Shown one piece after another: positions 2,704 through 17,553 of a stretch of DNA of 25,993 bases. Source of the DNA: Acidobacteriota bacterium (GTDB lineage Bacteria; Acidobacteriota; UBA4820; DSQY01); contig JBMFSH010000035.1 of NCBI GenBank assembly GCA_049967655.1, positions 1-25,993 on the forward strand, read 5' to 3'. Below the pieces are notes generated by a model. It did not search any database. It was not told the origin of the DNA and worked only from the letters and a program-made list of their open reading frames with translations. Position 1 is the stretch's first letter, and every line of letters starts with the position of its first letter. Position numbers and translations under genes: made by a program.

Positions 2704-2713
2704 GGAGGCGACC

Positions 2714-4363
2714 ATGAAGACCAGGCACATTCTCTTAGCGTTCTTGGTGGCCCTGGCTCTGGGGCTCGGCATGACTGTTCTCGCGCAGACCTCCGGCACT
2801 GGACAGCTCTTCTACAACCAGAGCATCCCCGGCAACACCGTCATTCCGGACGGGCTGAAGTCATTGATTATGCAGTACTACCCCCAAGCCTTCACTAGCG
2901 GCTGGGGGTCCTCTGACTACGCTTGCCATCCCGAGATTCCCATCCAGGACGACCTGACCAACGGGCGGATCCAATGTTGGGAACAAGAGCTTTCGTCCAG
3001 TGGGCCTGATGTCTATGTCGTGACTTATAGCCGATGCGGCGAAACGCTTCTGCGGATCTTCGTGAAGGATGCCTCCGGTACCTATCACTATCTCTGGGGC
3101 GCCAACCCCGACGTTTTTGGCGGCACGCTCTGGGACCCCCACTTCGAGGATGTCGAAAACGACGGGATGAAGGACATCCTCTTGTACTGGGAGGACGACT
3201 CCTACAATACGGGTGCGACCGTCAATCAGGGGGTTCTGGTCCTCGCCTACCGGAATGGCGCCATCGTGCCCATCACACCCTACAACCCCCAGAACGGAGC
3301 CGCTTGGGTTATGGGGCCGCCAGCACCAGGTAATACCGATGCATATACCTGCACCTGCTCGGACTCAGGCGTGGGTTTCGTGGACATTGATGGAGACGGA
3401 ATCCCCGAACTTCTGGTCTATCCGGATTACGGGCCCGCTGGGAACCGCGTGTGGCTCGGCGGCACCGAGGTCTGGAAACTCGTGAATGGCGTCTACCAGT
3501 TCCAGTACGAAACGCCCATCGGCACGACCACGCCGAGCGGGGGCGTGATCGGCGCGGCGATCAAGCCGGCGTCTATTCCTCTGGGCGAGCTGCAAGGGGC
3601 GGGGGGAAACACCTCCGTGAAAGGCAAGAGCCAGGGCGGCGGGAATGACCAGGCGATCACGCTCTACGTCATGCCGCCCTCGGGTTTCACGCTAGACGAC
3701 GTGGACTGGACGAGTCTGCGCATCGCCGATTTCACGCAGGCCCCTACGGCCGACGAAGGGGTGACCCCGGCGCCCTACAGCGCCACCTCGCCGCCGGCCA
3801 CAATGATGCCCGTGAGCCGCTTCGGCCAGACCATGCTCCAGGAGGACCTCTCCAAGCCGGATATGTCCTTCACCCAGCAGGACGCGGACCCGGTCTACAC
3901 CATCGGTCCCAGCGGCAGGCTGCACTTCACGACGCCCTATCACGTGTTTGGGTTCTCGAAGACGCTCCTCCTGCCGTGGCTCTACCAGCAGTGGCAGAAC
4001 GGGGCCTCCTCTTCGCCCCTGACCACCTGCGTCTCGCCTGGGCAGAGCTCGTCCTCCGCGAGGAAGGGGGGGACCAAGGCCGGGAGCCAGACGCCGCCGG
4101 CCTCGAAGGCCGCCCCGGCCAAGCCTGCCGGCACGAAGGGGCCCGCCACCAAGGCCCAGCCCGAGAGCCAGGGGAATCCCCACTGCTTCGCGCCCATCAC
4201 CATTCCCATTCGCGTGAACCTGACCAACAACCGCGGCCCCGCCCTCGGGGAAGCCCGCATCTGGATCGACACTGGGGCGCAAGGTTCTTCTTCCGCTGCC
4301 GCTGACGCGGGCGGGACAAAGCAACTCACGGGCCGCAAGGCACGGGCGGACAGCGCCAAGTAG
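2714..4363 (+). CDS. Exported protein (549 aa) with signal peptide and two FG-GAP/VCBS-like Ca-binding motifs; function unknown
   Basis: GGAGG RBS at 2704-2708, ATG 2714. MKTRHILLAFLVALALGLGMTVLA-Q is a Sec signal peptide. Motifs FEDVENDGMKDILL (~3143) and FVDIDGDGIPELLV (~3377). Lys/Ala/Pro-rich linker near the C-terminus. Confidence 0.8.
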   Translation: MKTRHILLAFLVALALGLGMTVLAQTSGTGQLFYNQSIPGNTVIPDGLKSLIMQYYPQAFTSGWGSSDYACHPEIPIQDDLTNGRIQCWEQELSSSGPDVYVVTYSRCGETLLRIFVKDASGTYHYLWGANPDVFGGTLWDPHFEDVENDGMKDILLYWEDDSYNTGATVNQGVLVLAYRNGAIVPITPYNPQNGAAWVMGPPAPGNTDAYTCTCSDSGVGFVDIDGDGIPELLVYPDYGPAGNRVWLGGTEVWKLVNGVYQFQYETPIGTTTPSGGVIGAAIKPASIPLGELQGAGGNTSVKGKSQGGGNDQAITLYVMPPSGFTLDDVDWTSLRIADFTQAPTADEGVTPAPYSATSPPATMMPVSRFGQTMLQEDLSKPDMSFTQQDADPVYTIGPSGRLHFTTPYHVFGFSKTLLLPWLYQQWQNGASSSPLTTCVSPGQSSSSARKGGTKAGSQTPPASKAAPAKPAGTKGPATKAQPESQGNPHCFAPITIPIRVNLTNNRGPALGEARIWIDTGAQGSSSAAADAGGTKQLTGRKARADSAK

Positions 4364-7578: not shown

Positions 7579-7607
7579 TTGACAGCCCTATGCCCGGGTG
7601 CTACCAT
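7579..7607 (+). promoter_or_regulatory. Strong sigma70-type promoter with extended -10
   Basis: TTGACA (7579-7584), 17-nt spacer, TGc-TACCAT (7602-7607); 44 nt upstream of ATG 7651, which has a GGGAGG RBS. Confidence 0.8.
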
Positions 7608-7650
7608 ATTCGCACCTGTACCACAGGCTTCTCTGGGGAGAAGGGGAGGC

Positions 7651-10600
7651 ATGACGAAGAAACGGGTTCTCATCGTCGATTACGAGCCGAAACTTCTGGA
7701 CCGCTTGCAGTCGCAGCTGCCGGCGGACCAGTTCGAGGTGGCCACCGCGCAGGACGGCTTCGCCGCCCTCGAGGTCTTCGAGAGCTTCCATCCGGACCTG
7801 GTCTTCCTCCGGACCATGCTGCCCAAGAAGCACGGCTTCCAAGTCTGCCAGGAGATGGTCGAGCGCTCCGGCTCCCGTCGCGTCCCCATCGTCATGCACT
7901 GCAGCATCTACAAGAGCCGGAAGTACCGCAACGATGCCATGAAGATCTACGGCGCCGCCGAGTACCTGGAGGACCCCATCTCGCCGGAGACCCTCCAGAG
8001 CGTGATGAAGGAGCTGCTCGACAAACAGCCCTCGGCCCCCGCGCCCGCCGCTAAGGCGACCGGCCTGCCCGATCTGGCCATGCCGAGTCCTTCCAAGGCC
8101 TCCAAGCCCAAGGGTAGCACCGGCTTCGACGTGGACAAGACCATCGAGGATACGCTCTCGGGCATCAACTTGGGGCTGAAAAAGAGCAAAAAACCGTCGA
8201 TGGAAGAGACAGTTCCCATCGGCGATTTTTCCTCCCCCGAGCCTCCTCCTCCGCCGCCGCCCGCCGCCCCTCCTCCCGAGGCTCCTCAGGTGGGCGAACA
8301 GGGGGTCACGTCGGAGGAGCTCTTCGGGGAGGTGATCCACGATGTGATCGAGCCGGGCCAGGCTTCGCAGCCCTCTGCGGCGGAGTCGTCTTCCACCGCC
8401 GGAGCCCCGGCCGCCGCGCCCCCCCCTCCGCCCCTGCAGGCCAGCACCGCCCCGCCGCGAAGGATGCCCGTGGTGGACGTGAACGCGGCCCTCGGAGAGC
8501 GCTTGCTGACCGCTCCGAAGGGCGAAGATACGGCGGTTCGCCGCCTGAAAGCGAGGAGCCAGTCCGAGCTAGACCGGAAGCTGGAGGAGACCCTCTCCGG
8601 CGTGAAACTGGGAGCCAGGGAGGGAATCCGGCCCACTCCGCCCGCTCCTGCGCCCGTCGAGGCCAAGGCCGCTCCGGTGGCTCCTGTGCCCGCCCCCGAA
8701 TCTCTCCGGGAGGAGGCGAAGCCCGCGCCCACTCCCGAGGCGGCCAAGACGGCCGCGCCCGAACCGCCGAAAGAAAAGGCGGCCGCTGGCGAGGAGGGGA
8801 TTCCTTACGGCCAGTACATGCTCATGGAGAGGATCGCCGTCGGCGGGATGGCCGAGCTCTTCAAGGCCCGCCAGAACGGGCTGGAAGGCTTCAAGCGGAT
8901 CGTGGCCATCAAGCGCATCCTGCCGCACCTGGCCGCCAACCAGGAGTTCGTCACCATGTTCATCGACGAAGCCAAGCTGGCGGCCCAGCTGAACCATCCC
9001 AACATCGGCCACATCTACGACCTGGGCAAGCTGGAGGACTCCTACTTCATCGCCATGGAGTACGTGGAGGGCAAGGACCTGCGGGCCATCATGAGGGAGA
9101 TCGAGGAGCGCAAGCGCCTCATGCCCATCCGCGTGGCCACCTTCATCGCCCAGAAGGTCTGCTCCGCCCTTCAGTACGCGCACCAGGCGAGGGACATGGA
9201 CGGAAAGCCCATGGACATCGTGCACCGAGACGTCTCTCCCCAGAACATCATCATCTCCACGAGCGGAGAGGTGAAGCTCGTGGACTTTGGCATCGCCAAG
9301 GCCGCCTCCAAGGCCAGCCACACGGTCTCCGGAGCGCTCAAGGGCAAGCTGCTCTACATGTCGCCCGAGCAGGCCTGGGGCAAAACCGTGGATCGGCGCG
9401 GGGACATCTTCTCCCTGGGCATCGTCATGGCCGAGATGCTCACGGGAAAGAAGCTCTTCTACGGCGATTCGGAGATGTCCATCCTTGAAAAGGTTCGGGA
9501 AGCCAAGGTGGTGCCGCCCAAGGAGAGCCGCCCGGAGGTCCCCGACGCCCTCCAGCGGATCATCCTCAGGGCCCTCCAGCGCGACCCCGAGCGCCGCTAC
9601 CGGGACTGCAAGGCGATGCAGGCCGAGCTCGAGAAGTTCGCCTACGGCGAATGGGAGACGCTGCCCTCCGCCTACGACGCGGCGGCCTTCCTCACCGACA
9701 TTTTCCCGGAGGTCTACAGGCGCGAGATCCTGGAGGTCCTCAAGAGGGAGCCGGAGGAGACCGCGGAAGCGGCCGCCGACGGAGGTGCCGAGGCTGCGGA
9801 GAAGGCCGAGGCCGCCGCCAGGGCCAAGGCGCCCAAGTCCGAGCGAGGGAAGTACGCGCCCGGAAAAAAGGAGCGGGCCAGGTCCGCCGAGCAACAAGCT
9901 CCGCCCGAGGCCGCCAAGCCGGCCGCCTCCAAGCCTGTGGTACCGGCCCCGGCTCCCAAGCCGGCTCCACCGCCGCCGCCTCCTCCTCCAACTCCGCCTC
10001 CGGCCCCCAAGCAGGAGGAGCGGGCGCCCGAGATGTTCGGTAGCATGGTGGAAGAGAAGTCCGGAAAGAAAAACCTGCTCCTCTTCGGCGGCATCGCGGC
10101 CGCCCTTCTGGTCGTCGCGGTGGTGGCCCTCTTCGTGATAACGGGGAAGAAAAAGCCCGCCGAGGCGTCCCCCTCCCCGCCTGCCGCCCCTCCCGCCGCC
10201 GCGGCCACGTCGGCGCAGACGGCGACCAAGCCGGTGGAGGTTCCGCCTCCGGTCATCGAGGCACCCAAGCCGGCGCCGCCGCCAGCCGCCGCTCCTCCCG
10301 CGACGGACGCCCAGCTCGCCAGCGCCAAGCGGTCGGCCACGAGGACCCTCGGCGAGCTCGCGAATGGGATCGCCGCGCTGGAGAAGGGCAACGCCGCCAA
10401 GTATGCCGCGGCCTCGCTGGATTCCCTCAAGAGGAGCCAGGCGAACCTGTCGGATTCGCTGAGGCGGGCCAAGACCGTGGAGGAGTACCAGGCGGTCCAG
10501 GAGGGCGGCCAGAAGGCGCTGCCGCTCATCAACCAGGTGAGGGACCAGGTCAACCAGGCCAAGGCGGCGGAGGCGGTTCAGGCCGCCGAGGCCGCCCAGA

Positions 10601-11007
10601 AGGCCGAGCAGGAGCAGGCCGCCCAGAAGGCCGCCGAAGCCGCCCAGAAGGCCCAGGAGGCGGCCAAGACCCAGCCGGCGGCCTCCGCCAGCAAGGTCAA
10701 GGCCGGCGACTTCGTGCAGCTCTGGGCGGTGGACGTGAAGCCTCGGATCGTCAATTCGATCCAGGCGCAGTACACCTCCTTGGCCCGCGCCAACCGGGTG
10801 CAGGGCACCATCTATGTTCAGGCGCAGATCGACGAAACGGGTAGGGTAACCAGCGCGCAGGTGGTACGCGGCCCTCAGCCCGACTACGGGCTGGACGAAG
10901 AGTGCGTGAAGGCGGCCCTGAAATCCCGGTATTCCCCCGCGATCAAAGACGGCGTTCCCGTGAAGACGTCCATTACCTATCCGGTGGTGTTCAAGATCGG
11001 CCAGTAG
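7651..11007 (+). CDS. Fusion protein (1118 aa): pseudo-receiver, Pro-rich linker, Ser/Thr protein kinase, TM helix, Pro/Ala-rich TolA-like stalk, TonB C-terminal domain
   Basis: REC fold KRVLIVDYE...PDLVFLRTMLP...YLEDP. Kinase IAVGGMAELFKA, VAIKRI, HRDVSPQN, DFGIAK, YMSPEQ (~8815-9640). TM LLLFGGIAAALLVVAVVALFVI (~10075-10140). TonB_C YTSLARANRVQGTIYVQAQIDETGRV...YSPAIKDGVPV...VVFKI. Confidence 0.9.
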   Translation: MTKKRVLIVDYEPKLLDRLQSQLPADQFEVATAQDGFAALEVFESFHPDLVFLRTMLPKKHGFQVCQEMVERSGSRRVPIVMHCSIYKSRKYRNDAMKIYGAAEYLEDPISPETLQSVMKELLDKQPSAPAPAAKATGLPDLAMPSPSKASKPKGSTGFDVDKTIEDTLSGINLGLKKSKKPSMEETVPIGDFSSPEPPPPPPPAAPPPEAPQVGEQGVTSEELFGEVIHDVIEPGQASQPSAAESSSTAGAPAAAPPPPPLQASTAPPRRMPVVDVNAALGERLLTAPKGEDTAVRRLKARSQSELDRKLEETLSGVKLGAREGIRPTPPAPAPVEAKAAPVAPVPAPESLREEAKPAPTPEAAKTAAPEPPKEKAAAGEEGIPYGQYMLMERIAVGGMAELFKARQNGLEGFKRIVAIKRILPHLAANQEFVTMFIDEAKLAAQLNHPNIGHIYDLGKLEDSYFIAMEYVEGKDLRAIMREIEERKRLMPIRVATFIAQKVCSALQYAHQARDMDGKPMDIVHRDVSPQNIIISTSGEVKLVDFGIAKAASKASHTVSGALKGKLLYMSPEQAWGKTVDRRGDIFSLGIVMAEMLTGKKLFYGDSEMSILEKVREAKVVPPKESRPEVPDALQRIILRALQRDPERRYRDCKAMQAELEKFAYGEWETLPSAYDAAAFLTDIFPEVYRREILEVLKREPEETAEAAADGGAEAAEKAEAAARAKAPKSERGKYAPGKKERARSAEQQAPPEAAKPAASKPVVPAPAPKPAPPPPPPPPTPPPAPKQEERAPEMFGSMVEEKSGKKNLLLFGGIAAALLVVAVVALFVITGKKKPAEASPSPPAAPPAAAATSAQTATKPVEVPPPVIEAPKPAPPPAAAPPATDAQLASAKRSATRTLGELANGIAALEKGNAAKYAAASLDSLKRSQANLSDSLRRAKTVEEYQAVQEGGQKALPLINQVRDQVNQAKAAEAVQAAEAAQKAEQEQAAQKAAEAAQKAQEAAKTQPAASASKVKAGDFVQLWAVDVKPRIVNSIQAQYTSLARANRVQGTIYVQAQIDETGRVTSAQVVRGPQPDYGLDEECVKAALKSRYSPAIKDGVPVKTSITYPVVFKIGQ

Positions 11008-11026
11008 TAGCGAGAAGGAGGCGGCT

Positions 11027-11251
11027 GTGGCGAGTACGCTCACCGAAAAGCAGAAGAAGTTCTATGAAGACGCCCATAGGCAGACGAAGGAAGAGATCAA
11101 GGAGATCGACGCCTCCATCGAAGAGGAGCTGGCCAAGGTGAAGGAGCGGCTCGCCCAGCTTCAGGAAGCAAAGAAGGCGGCCCTCCAGATGCACTCGGCG
11201 GCCTGCATGCGGCTCGGCCTGAAGAACGAGTTCGAGGAGGAGAGCGAGTAG
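11027..11251 (+). CDS. Small charged coiled-coil protein (74 aa), unknown function
   Basis: AAGGAGG RBS before GTG 11027; host-like codon usage; heptad-like EIKEIDASIEEELAKVKERLAQLQEAK. Confidence 0.85.
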   Translation: MASTLTEKQKKFYEDAHRQTKEEIKEIDASIEEELAKVKERLAQLQEAKKAALQMHSAACMRLGLKNEFEEESE

Positions 11252-11266
11252 TTTTTTCCCCGCAGC

Positions 11267-11433
11267 CATCCAAGGTGCCCCTACCGGGGTGAAAAGGGAA
11301 GGCCGTGAAATTCGGCCGCGGCCCCGCCACTGTGAGCGGCGACGAAAGCGGCGATGAGCCACTGCCTCGGAAGAGAGGCGGGAAGGCGCCGTCAGTAGGA
11401 TGACCCGCAAGCCAGGAGACCTGCCTGAGGATG
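11267..11433 (+). ncRNA. Cobalamin (B12) riboswitch
   Basis: AGGTGC...AAAAGGGAA-GGCCGTGAAATTCGGCC-GCGGCCCCGCCACTGTGA...GCCACTG...GGGAAGGC...AAGCCAGGAGACCTGCC (B12 box), closed by CATCC/GGATG; lies upstream of a btu transport operon. Confidence 0.95.
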
Positions 11434-11508
11434 CCCGATTGGGTGCCCCCTCGTGGGAGGGGAACCGAACCGTGCGCCCCCGGAAGCCCCGGTCTATCGG
11501 AGGGTTTC

Positions 11509-16713: not shown

Positions 16714-17553
16714 ATGATGACCTTTCAGGGCTCACTCAAGGAACTGCACCTGCCGGACGTCATCCAGCTCGTCTCCGTGTCGGGCAAGACCGGGTGCTTC
16801 CACCTCGACCGGGAGGGTGAGGCGGGCGCCATCTACCTGGAAAACGGCCGCATCGTCCACGCCTCCCTGGGAAAGCTCGCTGGCGAGGAGGCCGTCTACG
16901 CCCTCTCCACCTGGTCCGAGGGCAGCTTCCACTTCCGCCCTGGCGACGCGGCCCCCGCCCACACCATCACCAAGAACAACACCAACCTGCTCATGGAGGC
17001 GGCGCGCCGGATGGACGAGTGGCGCGTGCTCTCCAAGAAGATCCCCTCCCTGGACAGGGTGCCCCGCTTTCAGGTGCCCGAAGGCAAGCAGGGACAGATC
17101 AACCTGAACACCCAGGAGTGGCTCATCCTCAGCAAGATAGACGGCAAGGCCGACATCGAGACCATCGCCGAGCGGCTCGAGCTCTCCACCTTCGAGGTCG
17201 CCAAGCTCCTGTACGGGCTGGTCACCATGGGGCTGATCGTGCTGGACGCGCCGGCGCCGCGGCCCGCCGACGGTGGGCGCCACGACGAGGTGGAGGAGCG
17301 CCTCCTCCGCCTGGTGGAGCGCCTGCGGGACGAGGCCTTCGCCGTCCTCGGCGAGGCGGGCAGGCCCGTGGTCCAAATGGCCTTCGCCGAGGCCGACCGC
17401 GGAGTCCGCGATGGGCAGGGCACGGAGGCGGTGCAGTCCATGTGTCAGACGGTCATCCAGCACGCCGCCCAGTCCGGCGGCCCCGACGTCCAACGCCAGG
17501 TGGCCGAGCGCTTCCGGGATATCCTCTCCTCCTGGAACGCCGGAGCCTTTTGA
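16714..17553 (+). CDS. DUF4388 (PatA-N) domain protein with a winged-helix-like middle region
   Basis: FQGSLKELHLPDVIQLV...KTGCF...GAIYLENGRIVHA...GEEAVY...WSEGSFHF...LLMEAARRMDEW, then LNTQEWLILSKIDG...AKLLYGLVTMGLI. Start is ATG 16714 or 16717. Confidence 0.85.
   Translation: MMTFQGSLKELHLPDVIQLVSVSGKTGCFHLDREGEAGAIYLENGRIVHASLGKLAGEEAVYALSTWSEGSFHFRPGDAAPAHTITKNNTNLLMEAARRMDEWRVLSKKIPSLDRVPRFQVPEGKQGQINLNTQEWLILSKIDGKADIETIAERLELSTFEVAKLLYGLVTMGLIVLDAPAPRPADGGRHDEVEERLLRLVERLRDEAFAVLGEAGRPVVQMAFAEADRGVRDGQGTEAVQSMCQTVIQHAAQSGGPDVQRQVAERFRDILSSWNAGAF

Follow-up and report, generated by a model that had tools for sequence, protein, structure and literature searches.

Domain organization of a receiver–kinase–TonB fusion

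The DNA analysed here (the window) comprises 25,993 nucleotides from an Acidobacteriota bacterium (GTDB lineage UBA4820, DSQY01; contig JBMFSH010000035.1 of assembly GCA_049967655.1, positions 1 to 25,993; source genome G000). Its central feature is a gene for a protein, P0001, in which a pseudo-receiver and a Hanks-type Ser/Thr kinase are joined, through a transmembrane helix and a periplasmic stalk, to a TonB C-terminal domain (TonB_C). The gene is followed by a short reading frame encoding P0002, and a paralog of the fusion with a degenerate kinase fold, P0122, is encoded elsewhere in the genome. The features of the locus are:

7579..7607, + strand: sigma-70-like promoter with an extended −10 TG, between ffh and the kinase gene (consensus match only)
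7651..11007, + strand: kinase–TonB_C gene, P0001, 1118 amino acids
7666..8004, + strand: pseudo-receiver, residues 6-118, with Arg54 at the Asp site, Tyr11 in the acidic pocket and Asp108 in place of the conserved Lys
8131..8163, + strand: linker helix motif B, first copy, residues 161-171
8308..8328, + strand: linker helix motif A, TSEELFG, residues 220-226
8566..8601, + strand: linker helix motif B, second copy, residues 306-317
8818..9621, + strand: Hanks-type Ser/Thr kinase domain, residues 390-657, with VAIK, helix-C Glu, HRD and DFG
10075..10146, + strand: single transmembrane helix without His, residues ~809-832
10306..10668, + strand: periplasmic stalk of predicted helices, residues 886-1006, preceded by a Pro/Ala-rich stretch
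10699..10998, + strand: TonB C-terminal domain and upstream KxGD strand, residues 1017-1116
11027..11251, + strand: P0002, 74-residue acidic helical (coiled-coil-like) protein, with its own ribosome-binding site at 11015-11021

P0001 is encoded by a single intact open reading frame. A ribosome-binding site (7643-7649) and the promoter-like sequence TTGACA-17-TACCAT (one match compared with 0.3 expected from shuffled sequences) lie upstream of the ATG at 7651, which is thus the likely start codon; a longer frame from a TTG at 7579 was rejected, as this TTG belongs to the −35 box and homologs begin at the receiver. The initial annotation had described all of these domains in one polypeptide, and Pfam matches (Response_reg 6-118, Pkinase 390-657 and TonB_C 1039-1116, each above its cut-off), alignments and structural modelling confirm that architecture. 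The misassembly it had considered is rejected by full-length orthologs in independent genomes. Indeed, an ortholog-level match to the kinase domain is present in 113 of 301 Acidobacteriota genomes, in single copy in 112 of the 113 (the 301 include one unpublished genome, G051, on which alone no claim depends), and matches were found in 24/24 genomes of the same family, 4/4 of the same order and 34/41 overall. All three Pfam domains are carried by 108 of the 120 best database homologs. Named homologs, from Acidobacteriota or unnamed bacteria, are mostly called ‘TonB family protein', and related record titles cite Acidobacteriota, Thermoanaerobaculia and Aminicenantes.

The receiver is modelled with a normal receiver fold (pLDDT, the predicted local distance difference test, >90, TM-score by target ~0.9). 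Among the 110 homologs with a residue at the phosphoacceptor position, that residue is Ser in 56, Arg in 22, Asp in 18, Thr in 11 and Ala in 3, and all 18 Asp-bearing homologs lack both the acidic pocket and the conserved Lys. Judging from these residues, the P0001 receiver is not Asp-phosphorylatable and fits the class of Asp-less (pseudo-)receivers, which have been reported to be frequent in Acidobacteria (PMC4395418, excerpt). In the kinase domain the VAIK (418-421), HRD (525-527) and DFG (545-547) motifs are intact, as initially annotated, and across 120 aligned homologs the VAIK Lys and helix-C Glu are each kept in 119, and HRD and DFG in all 120. P0001 has the catalytic motif set of a Hanks-type Ser/Thr kinase and may be active.

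The transmembrane helix shows little sequence conservation within the family. A conserved His in this helix is required in energising TonB proteins; in agreement with the initial annotation, His occurs in the transmembrane window of 2 of 119 homolog rows, both at the window edge, and P0001 is unlikely to be an energising TonB. The source genome encodes four other TonB/TolA proteins with the transmembrane His and three His-less TonB_C proteins, all of the latter with cytoplasmic N-terminal domains. A model of residues 879-1118 (pLDDT 89.7) displays three long helices and a TonB-type domain, which scores 51.3 bits against PF03544. The best structural match is the TonB structure 6i97_D (expect value (E) 2.4e-5, TM-score by target 0.84) and all nine matches at E ≤0.001 are TonB-type C-terminal domains, in support of the fold originally assigned. 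TolA domain III, by comparison, matched far more weakly, at E 0.39-0.9, and is not the predicted fold of this region. The description of the stalk as TolA-like holds for its helical character in the source order but is not general, as other lineages have a stalk rich in Pro, Ala and Thr.

A small gene accompanies the kinase gene

The 74-residue reading frame starts 19 bases after the kinase gene. Of 30 ortholog loci, 27 have it downstream, and two of the three without it are cut off by a contig edge. The small gene is present in 119/301 genomes, 104 of which also have the kinase, and the two genes are adjacent on the same strand in 100 of these 104, the remaining four having them on different contigs. 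Conversely, when loci were selected by the small gene, 72 of 74 had a domain of the kinase–TonB_C family directly upstream. Within the order the small protein is 75-95% identical, compared with 45-80% typical of the large protein. It matches no Pfam family and gave one weak NCBIfam match far under the cut-off. Among solved structures its profile retrieved nothing beyond generic coiled-coil matches. Its 1225 homologs are mostly ‘hypothetical', and its Atlas clusters are nameless. One locus (L144, G277:C7) carries a second small-gene copy without a large upstream gene.

The low-complexity linker between receiver and kinase retains two types of short acidic helix, TSEELFG (motif A) and a repeated LEETLSG type (motif B). 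Phe225 of motif A and Thr314, Leu315 and Gly317 of the second motif B are nearly invariant across 34 orthologs. Motif profiles detected one or both motifs in 57 of the 74 small-gene loci and nowhere else in the source genome. CheZ and FliM provide examples of short acidic helices docking on receiver domains, and we infer that the small protein binds at the receiver/linker region. Where the motif was detected at a small-gene locus, the Ser/Thr of motif A is kept in 39 of 40 cases; 33 other rows gave no motif match. In five genomes (G035, G115, G126, G147 and G122) the small gene was not found, in a search without a positive control, and there motif A is degenerate or its Thr is lost. These patterns provide only a hint that motif A may be the binding site of the small protein. 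The source genome also encodes eight FHA proteins, which bears on motif A as a candidate FHA-binding phosphosite.

The upstream partner is full-length in most of the small-gene loci read, and several lineages have reduced it. Beside the small gene there is a kinase without TonB_C in L105, L115, L119, L136, L139-L141 and L146; receiver and TonB_C without kinase in L107, L128, L130, L191 and L192; receiver alone in L131; and a transmembrane helix with TonB_C alone in L120 and L143. Families f32, f42 and f86 have kinases that have lost TonB_C. As several lineages keep one domain without the other, a strict relay from TonB_C to kinase within one chain is not the conserved core of the system. Among the unusual forms, L107:3749-7087 (G033) has a very long Glu-rich linker in the kinase's place between receiver and TonB_C, the homolog P0086 is listed with TPR domains where TonB_C would be expected, and L203 (G149:C12) contains another receiver–kinase-fold protein lacking HRD and DFG, with no TonB_C within the stretch read.

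A pseudokinase twin with a related TonB domain

P0122 (G000:C63:8507-10435; L038:8507-10435) consists of a kinase fold, a transmembrane helix, a coiled coil and TonB_C. Like the small protein, this partner had been missed by the initial annotation. Its kinase fold gives a weak PF00069 match and is 22% identical to that of P0001. Among 59 homologs of this twin, HRD and a VAIK-like motif occur in none, a DFG string in two and a transmembrane His in none, whereas a GxYSPTTFN motif, part of a C-terminal GxYSPTTFNxAF helix, is kept in 58. P0122 is thus assigned from its sequence as a pseudokinase, a kinase fold without the catalytic Lys, the HRD Asp and the DFG Asp.

The twin was detected by single-sequence search in 69/301 genomes, of which 65 have the kinase and 68 the kinase or the small gene. 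A profile search of 80 chosen genomes, from which the best 150 of 342 rows were considered, gave twin-type rows in 39 of 51 kinase genomes among the matches listed. Twelve such rows were read: ten, one of them with a weak TonB_C at 15.5 bits, are true twins that carry this domain, and the other two, in G149 and G175, were rejected as other kinases, leaving 37 of the 51 kinase genomes with a twin-type row. Among the matches listed, no twin was found in 12 genomes with the small gene but without a kinase match, nor in 17 control genomes. In all five genomes read in which the kinase lacks TonB_C (G133, G154, G181, G084 and G271) the twin has this domain; the kinase stops after the transmembrane region in G133, G154, G181 and G271 and lacks that region in G084.

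Phylogenies of the two halves conflict. In the kinase-fold tree (11 genomes) live and dead folds are separated with a support of 100, and grouping by lineage is rejected (approximately unbiased (AU) test, p 2.7e-15). The TonB_C tree, by contrast, groups by lineage: in a 41-row tree the live and dead proteins of the source order form one clade (support 100/99), and a single clade of all kinase TonB_C domains is rejected (AU p 4.9e-7, 22 rows). Within the source genome the TonB_C domains of kinase and twin are 58% identical, compared with 25-27% to two His-bearing TonBs. The conflict fits repeated homogenisation of the two outer domains, or their co-evolution with a shared ligand. A third His-less TonB_C protein of the source genome (G000:C28:21803-23725), which has N-terminal Cys-rich zinc-ribbon-like repeats, an extra C-terminal domain and a GltJ-like layout, contributes a TonB_C that falls within the kinase/twin clade on a long branch.

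Co-occurrence with MglA-like GTPases

An MglA-like GTPase is encoded by all 128 genomes with the kinase or the small gene, compared with 218/301 overall, and at least three MglA-like copies occur in 93 of the 119 small-gene genomes versus 14 of the 182 others. This co-occurrence makes a link to MglA-type polarity control plausible. In the source genome an mglBA-like Roadblock–GTPase pair adjoins recR, and four further MglA-like proteins and a RomR-like protein are encoded. PF03029 gave no MglA match, and the MglA-like gene was instead located beside the Roadblock gene; the proteins that we take to be MglA, MglB and RomR are named on known motifs and on an architecture described in PMC3441718 (excerpt) rather than on a family match.

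The five MglA-like GTPases of the source genome are at C4:132185-133321, C7:46277-47425, C20:16916-17956, C24:19062-20600 and C58:3957-6125, four of them with C-terminal extensions. By eye, the tails of the C7 and C20 proteins contain short acidic helices loosely like the kinase linker motifs, although the motif profiles did not find them. Elsewhere in this genome (G000:C34, L194:1813-9945) the genes downstream of a pilM-N-O-P-Q operon are a TPR gene, one for a Roadblock (MglC-like) protein, and efp.

Proposed mechanism and alternatives

The reading that we favour, tentatively and with somewhat less than even confidence, is that P0001 and P0122 would form a non-energised kinase/pseudokinase receptor pair whose common docking target is a ligand in the periplasm or outer membrane, the small protein serving as adaptor. 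Through β-strand addition, each TonB_C domain would engage one and the same TonB-box-like strand, supplied by a conserved protein of the periplasm or outer membrane, and this shared ligand would bring kinase and pseudokinase together. GltJ and MasK of Myxococcus xanthus, described below, are precedents. PknB-type kinases are activated by dimerisation, and kinase–pseudokinase receptor pairs exist as a parallel. The dead fold would control the live kinase through its invariant C-terminal GxYSPTTFNxAF helix, and the pseudo-receiver and acidic linker helices would provide docking sites on which the small helical protein acts as adaptor. As output, a central process of the cell envelope or of polarity would be phosphorylated, the MglA/type IV pilus module being the most plausible target; the chain of steps as a whole, up to this output, must be regarded as doubtful. 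A broader version, in which a phylum-wide pair with two co-evolving TonB-type grips joined by one ligand would direct Ser/Thr phosphorylation via the 74-residue adaptor to MglA-type GTPases, serving as a trans-envelope polarity input, is quite unlikely in that complete form.

Several observations weigh against the receptor-pair reading. Phosphorylation is not an invariant core, because the kinase-less lineages listed above keep receiver, TonB_C and small gene, or in L131 the receiver alone. The linker motifs were detected in only 57 of the 74 small-gene loci. The TonB_C domain spans ~110 columns and its bootstrap support is unsettled, and occasional gene conversion could produce its grouping by lineage even if the two proteins share no function. 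The gene for the twin is not linked to the kinase and has no conserved neighbours, and among the matches listed it was not found in 14 of the 51 kinase genomes, including all eight of family f20. The association with MglA is confounded by kinship and, since related genomes are not independent, is only a hint. Finally, a RomR-like receiver was found in just 54 of the 113 kinase genomes (the best 14 candidates per genome were scored), so RomR is unsupported as a fixed partner, which weakens a fixed tie to the Myxococcus circuit.

In the source order the kinase/small-gene pair is flanked by ffh on one side and by a cobalamin riboswitch with btuFCD-btuB on the other, the riboswitch being present in 10/10 loci. 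In the window this element is:

11256..11442, + strand: cobalamin riboswitch, 4 nucleotides after the small gene, leading btuF-C-D-B; probably outside the module

Because it starts 4 nucleotides past the small-gene stop and nothing promoter-like was matched in its vicinity, transcription from the kinase promoter may continue into the btu genes. At 53 distant loci the commonest neighbours are a folC-like gene (26) and accD (24), both downstream, followed by a DUF4388 gene (15), a divergently oriented upstream exbB-exbD-exbD-tonB cluster (9) and btuF, which follows or flanks the kinase (5). The context of the kinase locus is thus housekeeping.

This housekeeping setting suits an alternative in which the core is a scaffold, made up of the membrane-anchored pseudo-receiver, its acidic docking helices and the small protein, while TonB_C only tethers or positions the assembly and an optional kinase is controlled from the cytoplasm, with no outside signal. 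The persistence of the small gene beside receiver-only, receiver–TonB_C, transmembrane–TonB_C-only and TonB_C-less kinase forms, and the greater conservation of the small protein than of the large one, also fit such a scaffold. Against it, kinase and TonB_C are kept together in most lineages, as in the 108 of 120 top homologs with all three domains; the twin keeps TonB_C where the kinase has lost it, in each of the five genomes read; and among the matches listed no twin was found in any of the 12 genomes where the kinase is missing. We consider this scaffold reading unlikely.

The initial annotation had proposed a sensor that reads outer-membrane receptor state or mechanical load. In such a model TonB_C would sample the TonB boxes exposed by outer-membrane transporters loaded with substrate, such as the window's BtuB-like receptor, and the kinase would report transporter occupancy or load. 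The fold is of the TonB type, its best matches being TonB domains solved with transporters, and equivalents of Tyr1041 and Arg1046 are common (YP in 67, YT in 40 and Arg in 79 of 120 homologs). Plug-domain receptors are present in all 53 genomes checked, and the riboswitch–btuFCD–btuB cluster follows the pair throughout the source order. These receptors, however, number 2-33 per genome, with eight in the source genome, while the kinase is single-copy, and the single kinase is therefore not tied to one receptor. In addition, none of the 53 distant loci, read with flanks of mostly 4-8 kb, gave a btuB match, accD and folC being the commonest neighbours there, and the kinase TonB_C is lost in three families. 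TonB-type domains also bind non-transporters, as predicted for GltG/GltJ with GltD and GltF (PMC11761067, excerpt). What stands of the original interpretation is a conserved His-less TonB_C protein with intact kinase motifs; a specific reading of outer-membrane receptor state is unsupported as stated, and such a transporter sensor is distinctly unlikely. It is very unlikely that P0001 is a motor-coupled, TonB- or GltG-like arm able to engage ExbBD or TolQR even though the usual His is missing, its kinase regulating or sensing the motor, for although the periplasmic part is long (median 269.5 residues across homologs) and nine distant loci have the exbB-exbD-exbD-tonB cluster, that cluster has its own tonB, and the poorly conserved, His-less helix is unlike those of the four His-bearing TonB/TolA proteins of the source genome. 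In this regard the earlier observation that exbBD is absent from the window is correct but has little meaning, given that the source genome has exbB and exbD elsewhere.

Relation to known systems

P0001 resembles PknB in layout and GltJ in its span of the envelope, and is a member of neither group. In common with TonB of Escherichia coli and Pseudomonas aeruginosa (PF03544/TIGR01352) it has a single transmembrane helix, a long periplasmic linker and a C-terminal TonB fold; in contrast to TonB, ~800 cytoplasmic residues precede the helix (from ~809), the helix has no His, the locus is single-copy and housekeeping-like, and separate canonical TonBs coexist in the same genome. GltJ and GltG, from the focal adhesions of Myxococcus xanthus, share with P0001 cytoplasmic interaction domains, disordered linkers, a transmembrane helix and a TonB-like C-terminus, and the GltJ helix is not predicted to bind the motor (PMC11761067, excerpt). 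P0001 differs in having a kinase and pseudo-receiver and no FHA or ZnR-GYF Pfam match, with no glt cluster nearby. The PASTA kinases PknB and StkP have the same kinase–transmembrane–extracytoplasmic sensor layout, PknB being the top solved relative (E 2e-45), whereas P0001 has TonB_C and no PASTA match (NF033483, 302 bits against a cut-off of 450), an extra N-terminal pseudo-receiver, a diderm host and a dedicated pseudokinase paralog.

For MasK, a membrane-associated kinase of M. xanthus, binding to MglA and an effect on type IV pilus motility have been reported; the excerpt of that report (PMC3546991) mentions neither a TonB_C nor a receiver in MasK, and the kinase gene studied here is not beside mglBA. 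M56 peptidase–TonB_C fusions of Bacteroides and Xanthomonas likewise join TonB_C to a possible signalling domain, but that domain is a protease and the excerpt describes neither a partner gene nor a dead paralog (PMC10350073). The authors of that work state that, as far as they are aware, TonB proteins bearing extra domains are functionally uncharacterized (PMC10350073, excerpt). RomR/RomX and FrzS of M. xanthus combine a receiver or pseudo-receiver with a low-complexity docking linker, as P0001 does (PMC3441718, bioRxiv 2024.02.20.581209 and PMC11580455, excerpts), and RomX, a three-helix bundle (PDB 8ZNA), is a small helical partner that binds the RomR receiver (bioRxiv 2024.02.20.581209, excerpt). 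The source genome, however, has its RomR-like gene separately, and the small-protein profile gave no RomX match among solved structures up to E 1.

In the literature searched, from which subscription papers were mostly outside the scope, no paper on a kinase–TonB_C fusion or a dead twin was found. The main text of a 2025 bacterial kinase atlas, in the version excerpted, contains neither ‘TonB' nor ‘Acidobacter', although its supplements may list the architecture (bioRxiv 2025.01.12.632604). The kinase–TonB_C module is real, ancient and unstudied, a variant of receptor-like kinases in which a TonB-type grip replaces the usual sensor, at an ancient single-copy locus in roughly one in three of the Acidobacteriota sampled. 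To this architecture the present analysis adds the small partner gene, the nested distribution of the twin and the conflict between the trees. The module bears on how diderm receptor-like kinases reach or read the outer membrane, their Gram-positive counterparts being well studied. A live and a dead kinase acting as a pair, with outer domains that follow one another by lineage, would be the bacterial equivalent of kinase–pseudokinase receptor pairs, and the module could also explain the regulation of the many MglA paralogs in these bacteria. Its soluble, testable pieces are the two TonB_C domains, both kinase folds, the pseudo-receiver and the 74-residue protein.

Other features of the window and source genome

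A DUF4388 protein is encoded at window positions 16714-17553, and a homolog is near the kinase at many source-order loci as well as at the 15 distant loci noted above. Outside the window, G000:C3:139200-142471 (L040) is a TPR lipoprotein–tonB–exbB–exbD–exbD cluster with a His-bearing TonB, whose TPR protein is a candidate periplasmic partner. At the start of the window, positions 61-2703 encode an 880-residue protein without a Pfam match, in which a possible lytic-transglycosylase-like motif is discernible by eye near residue 585, and positions 2711-4363 encode a 550-residue exported protein with a weak FG-GAP match. Both genes have a lower guanine-plus-cytosine content (58-62%) and are possibly an insertion at the contig end.

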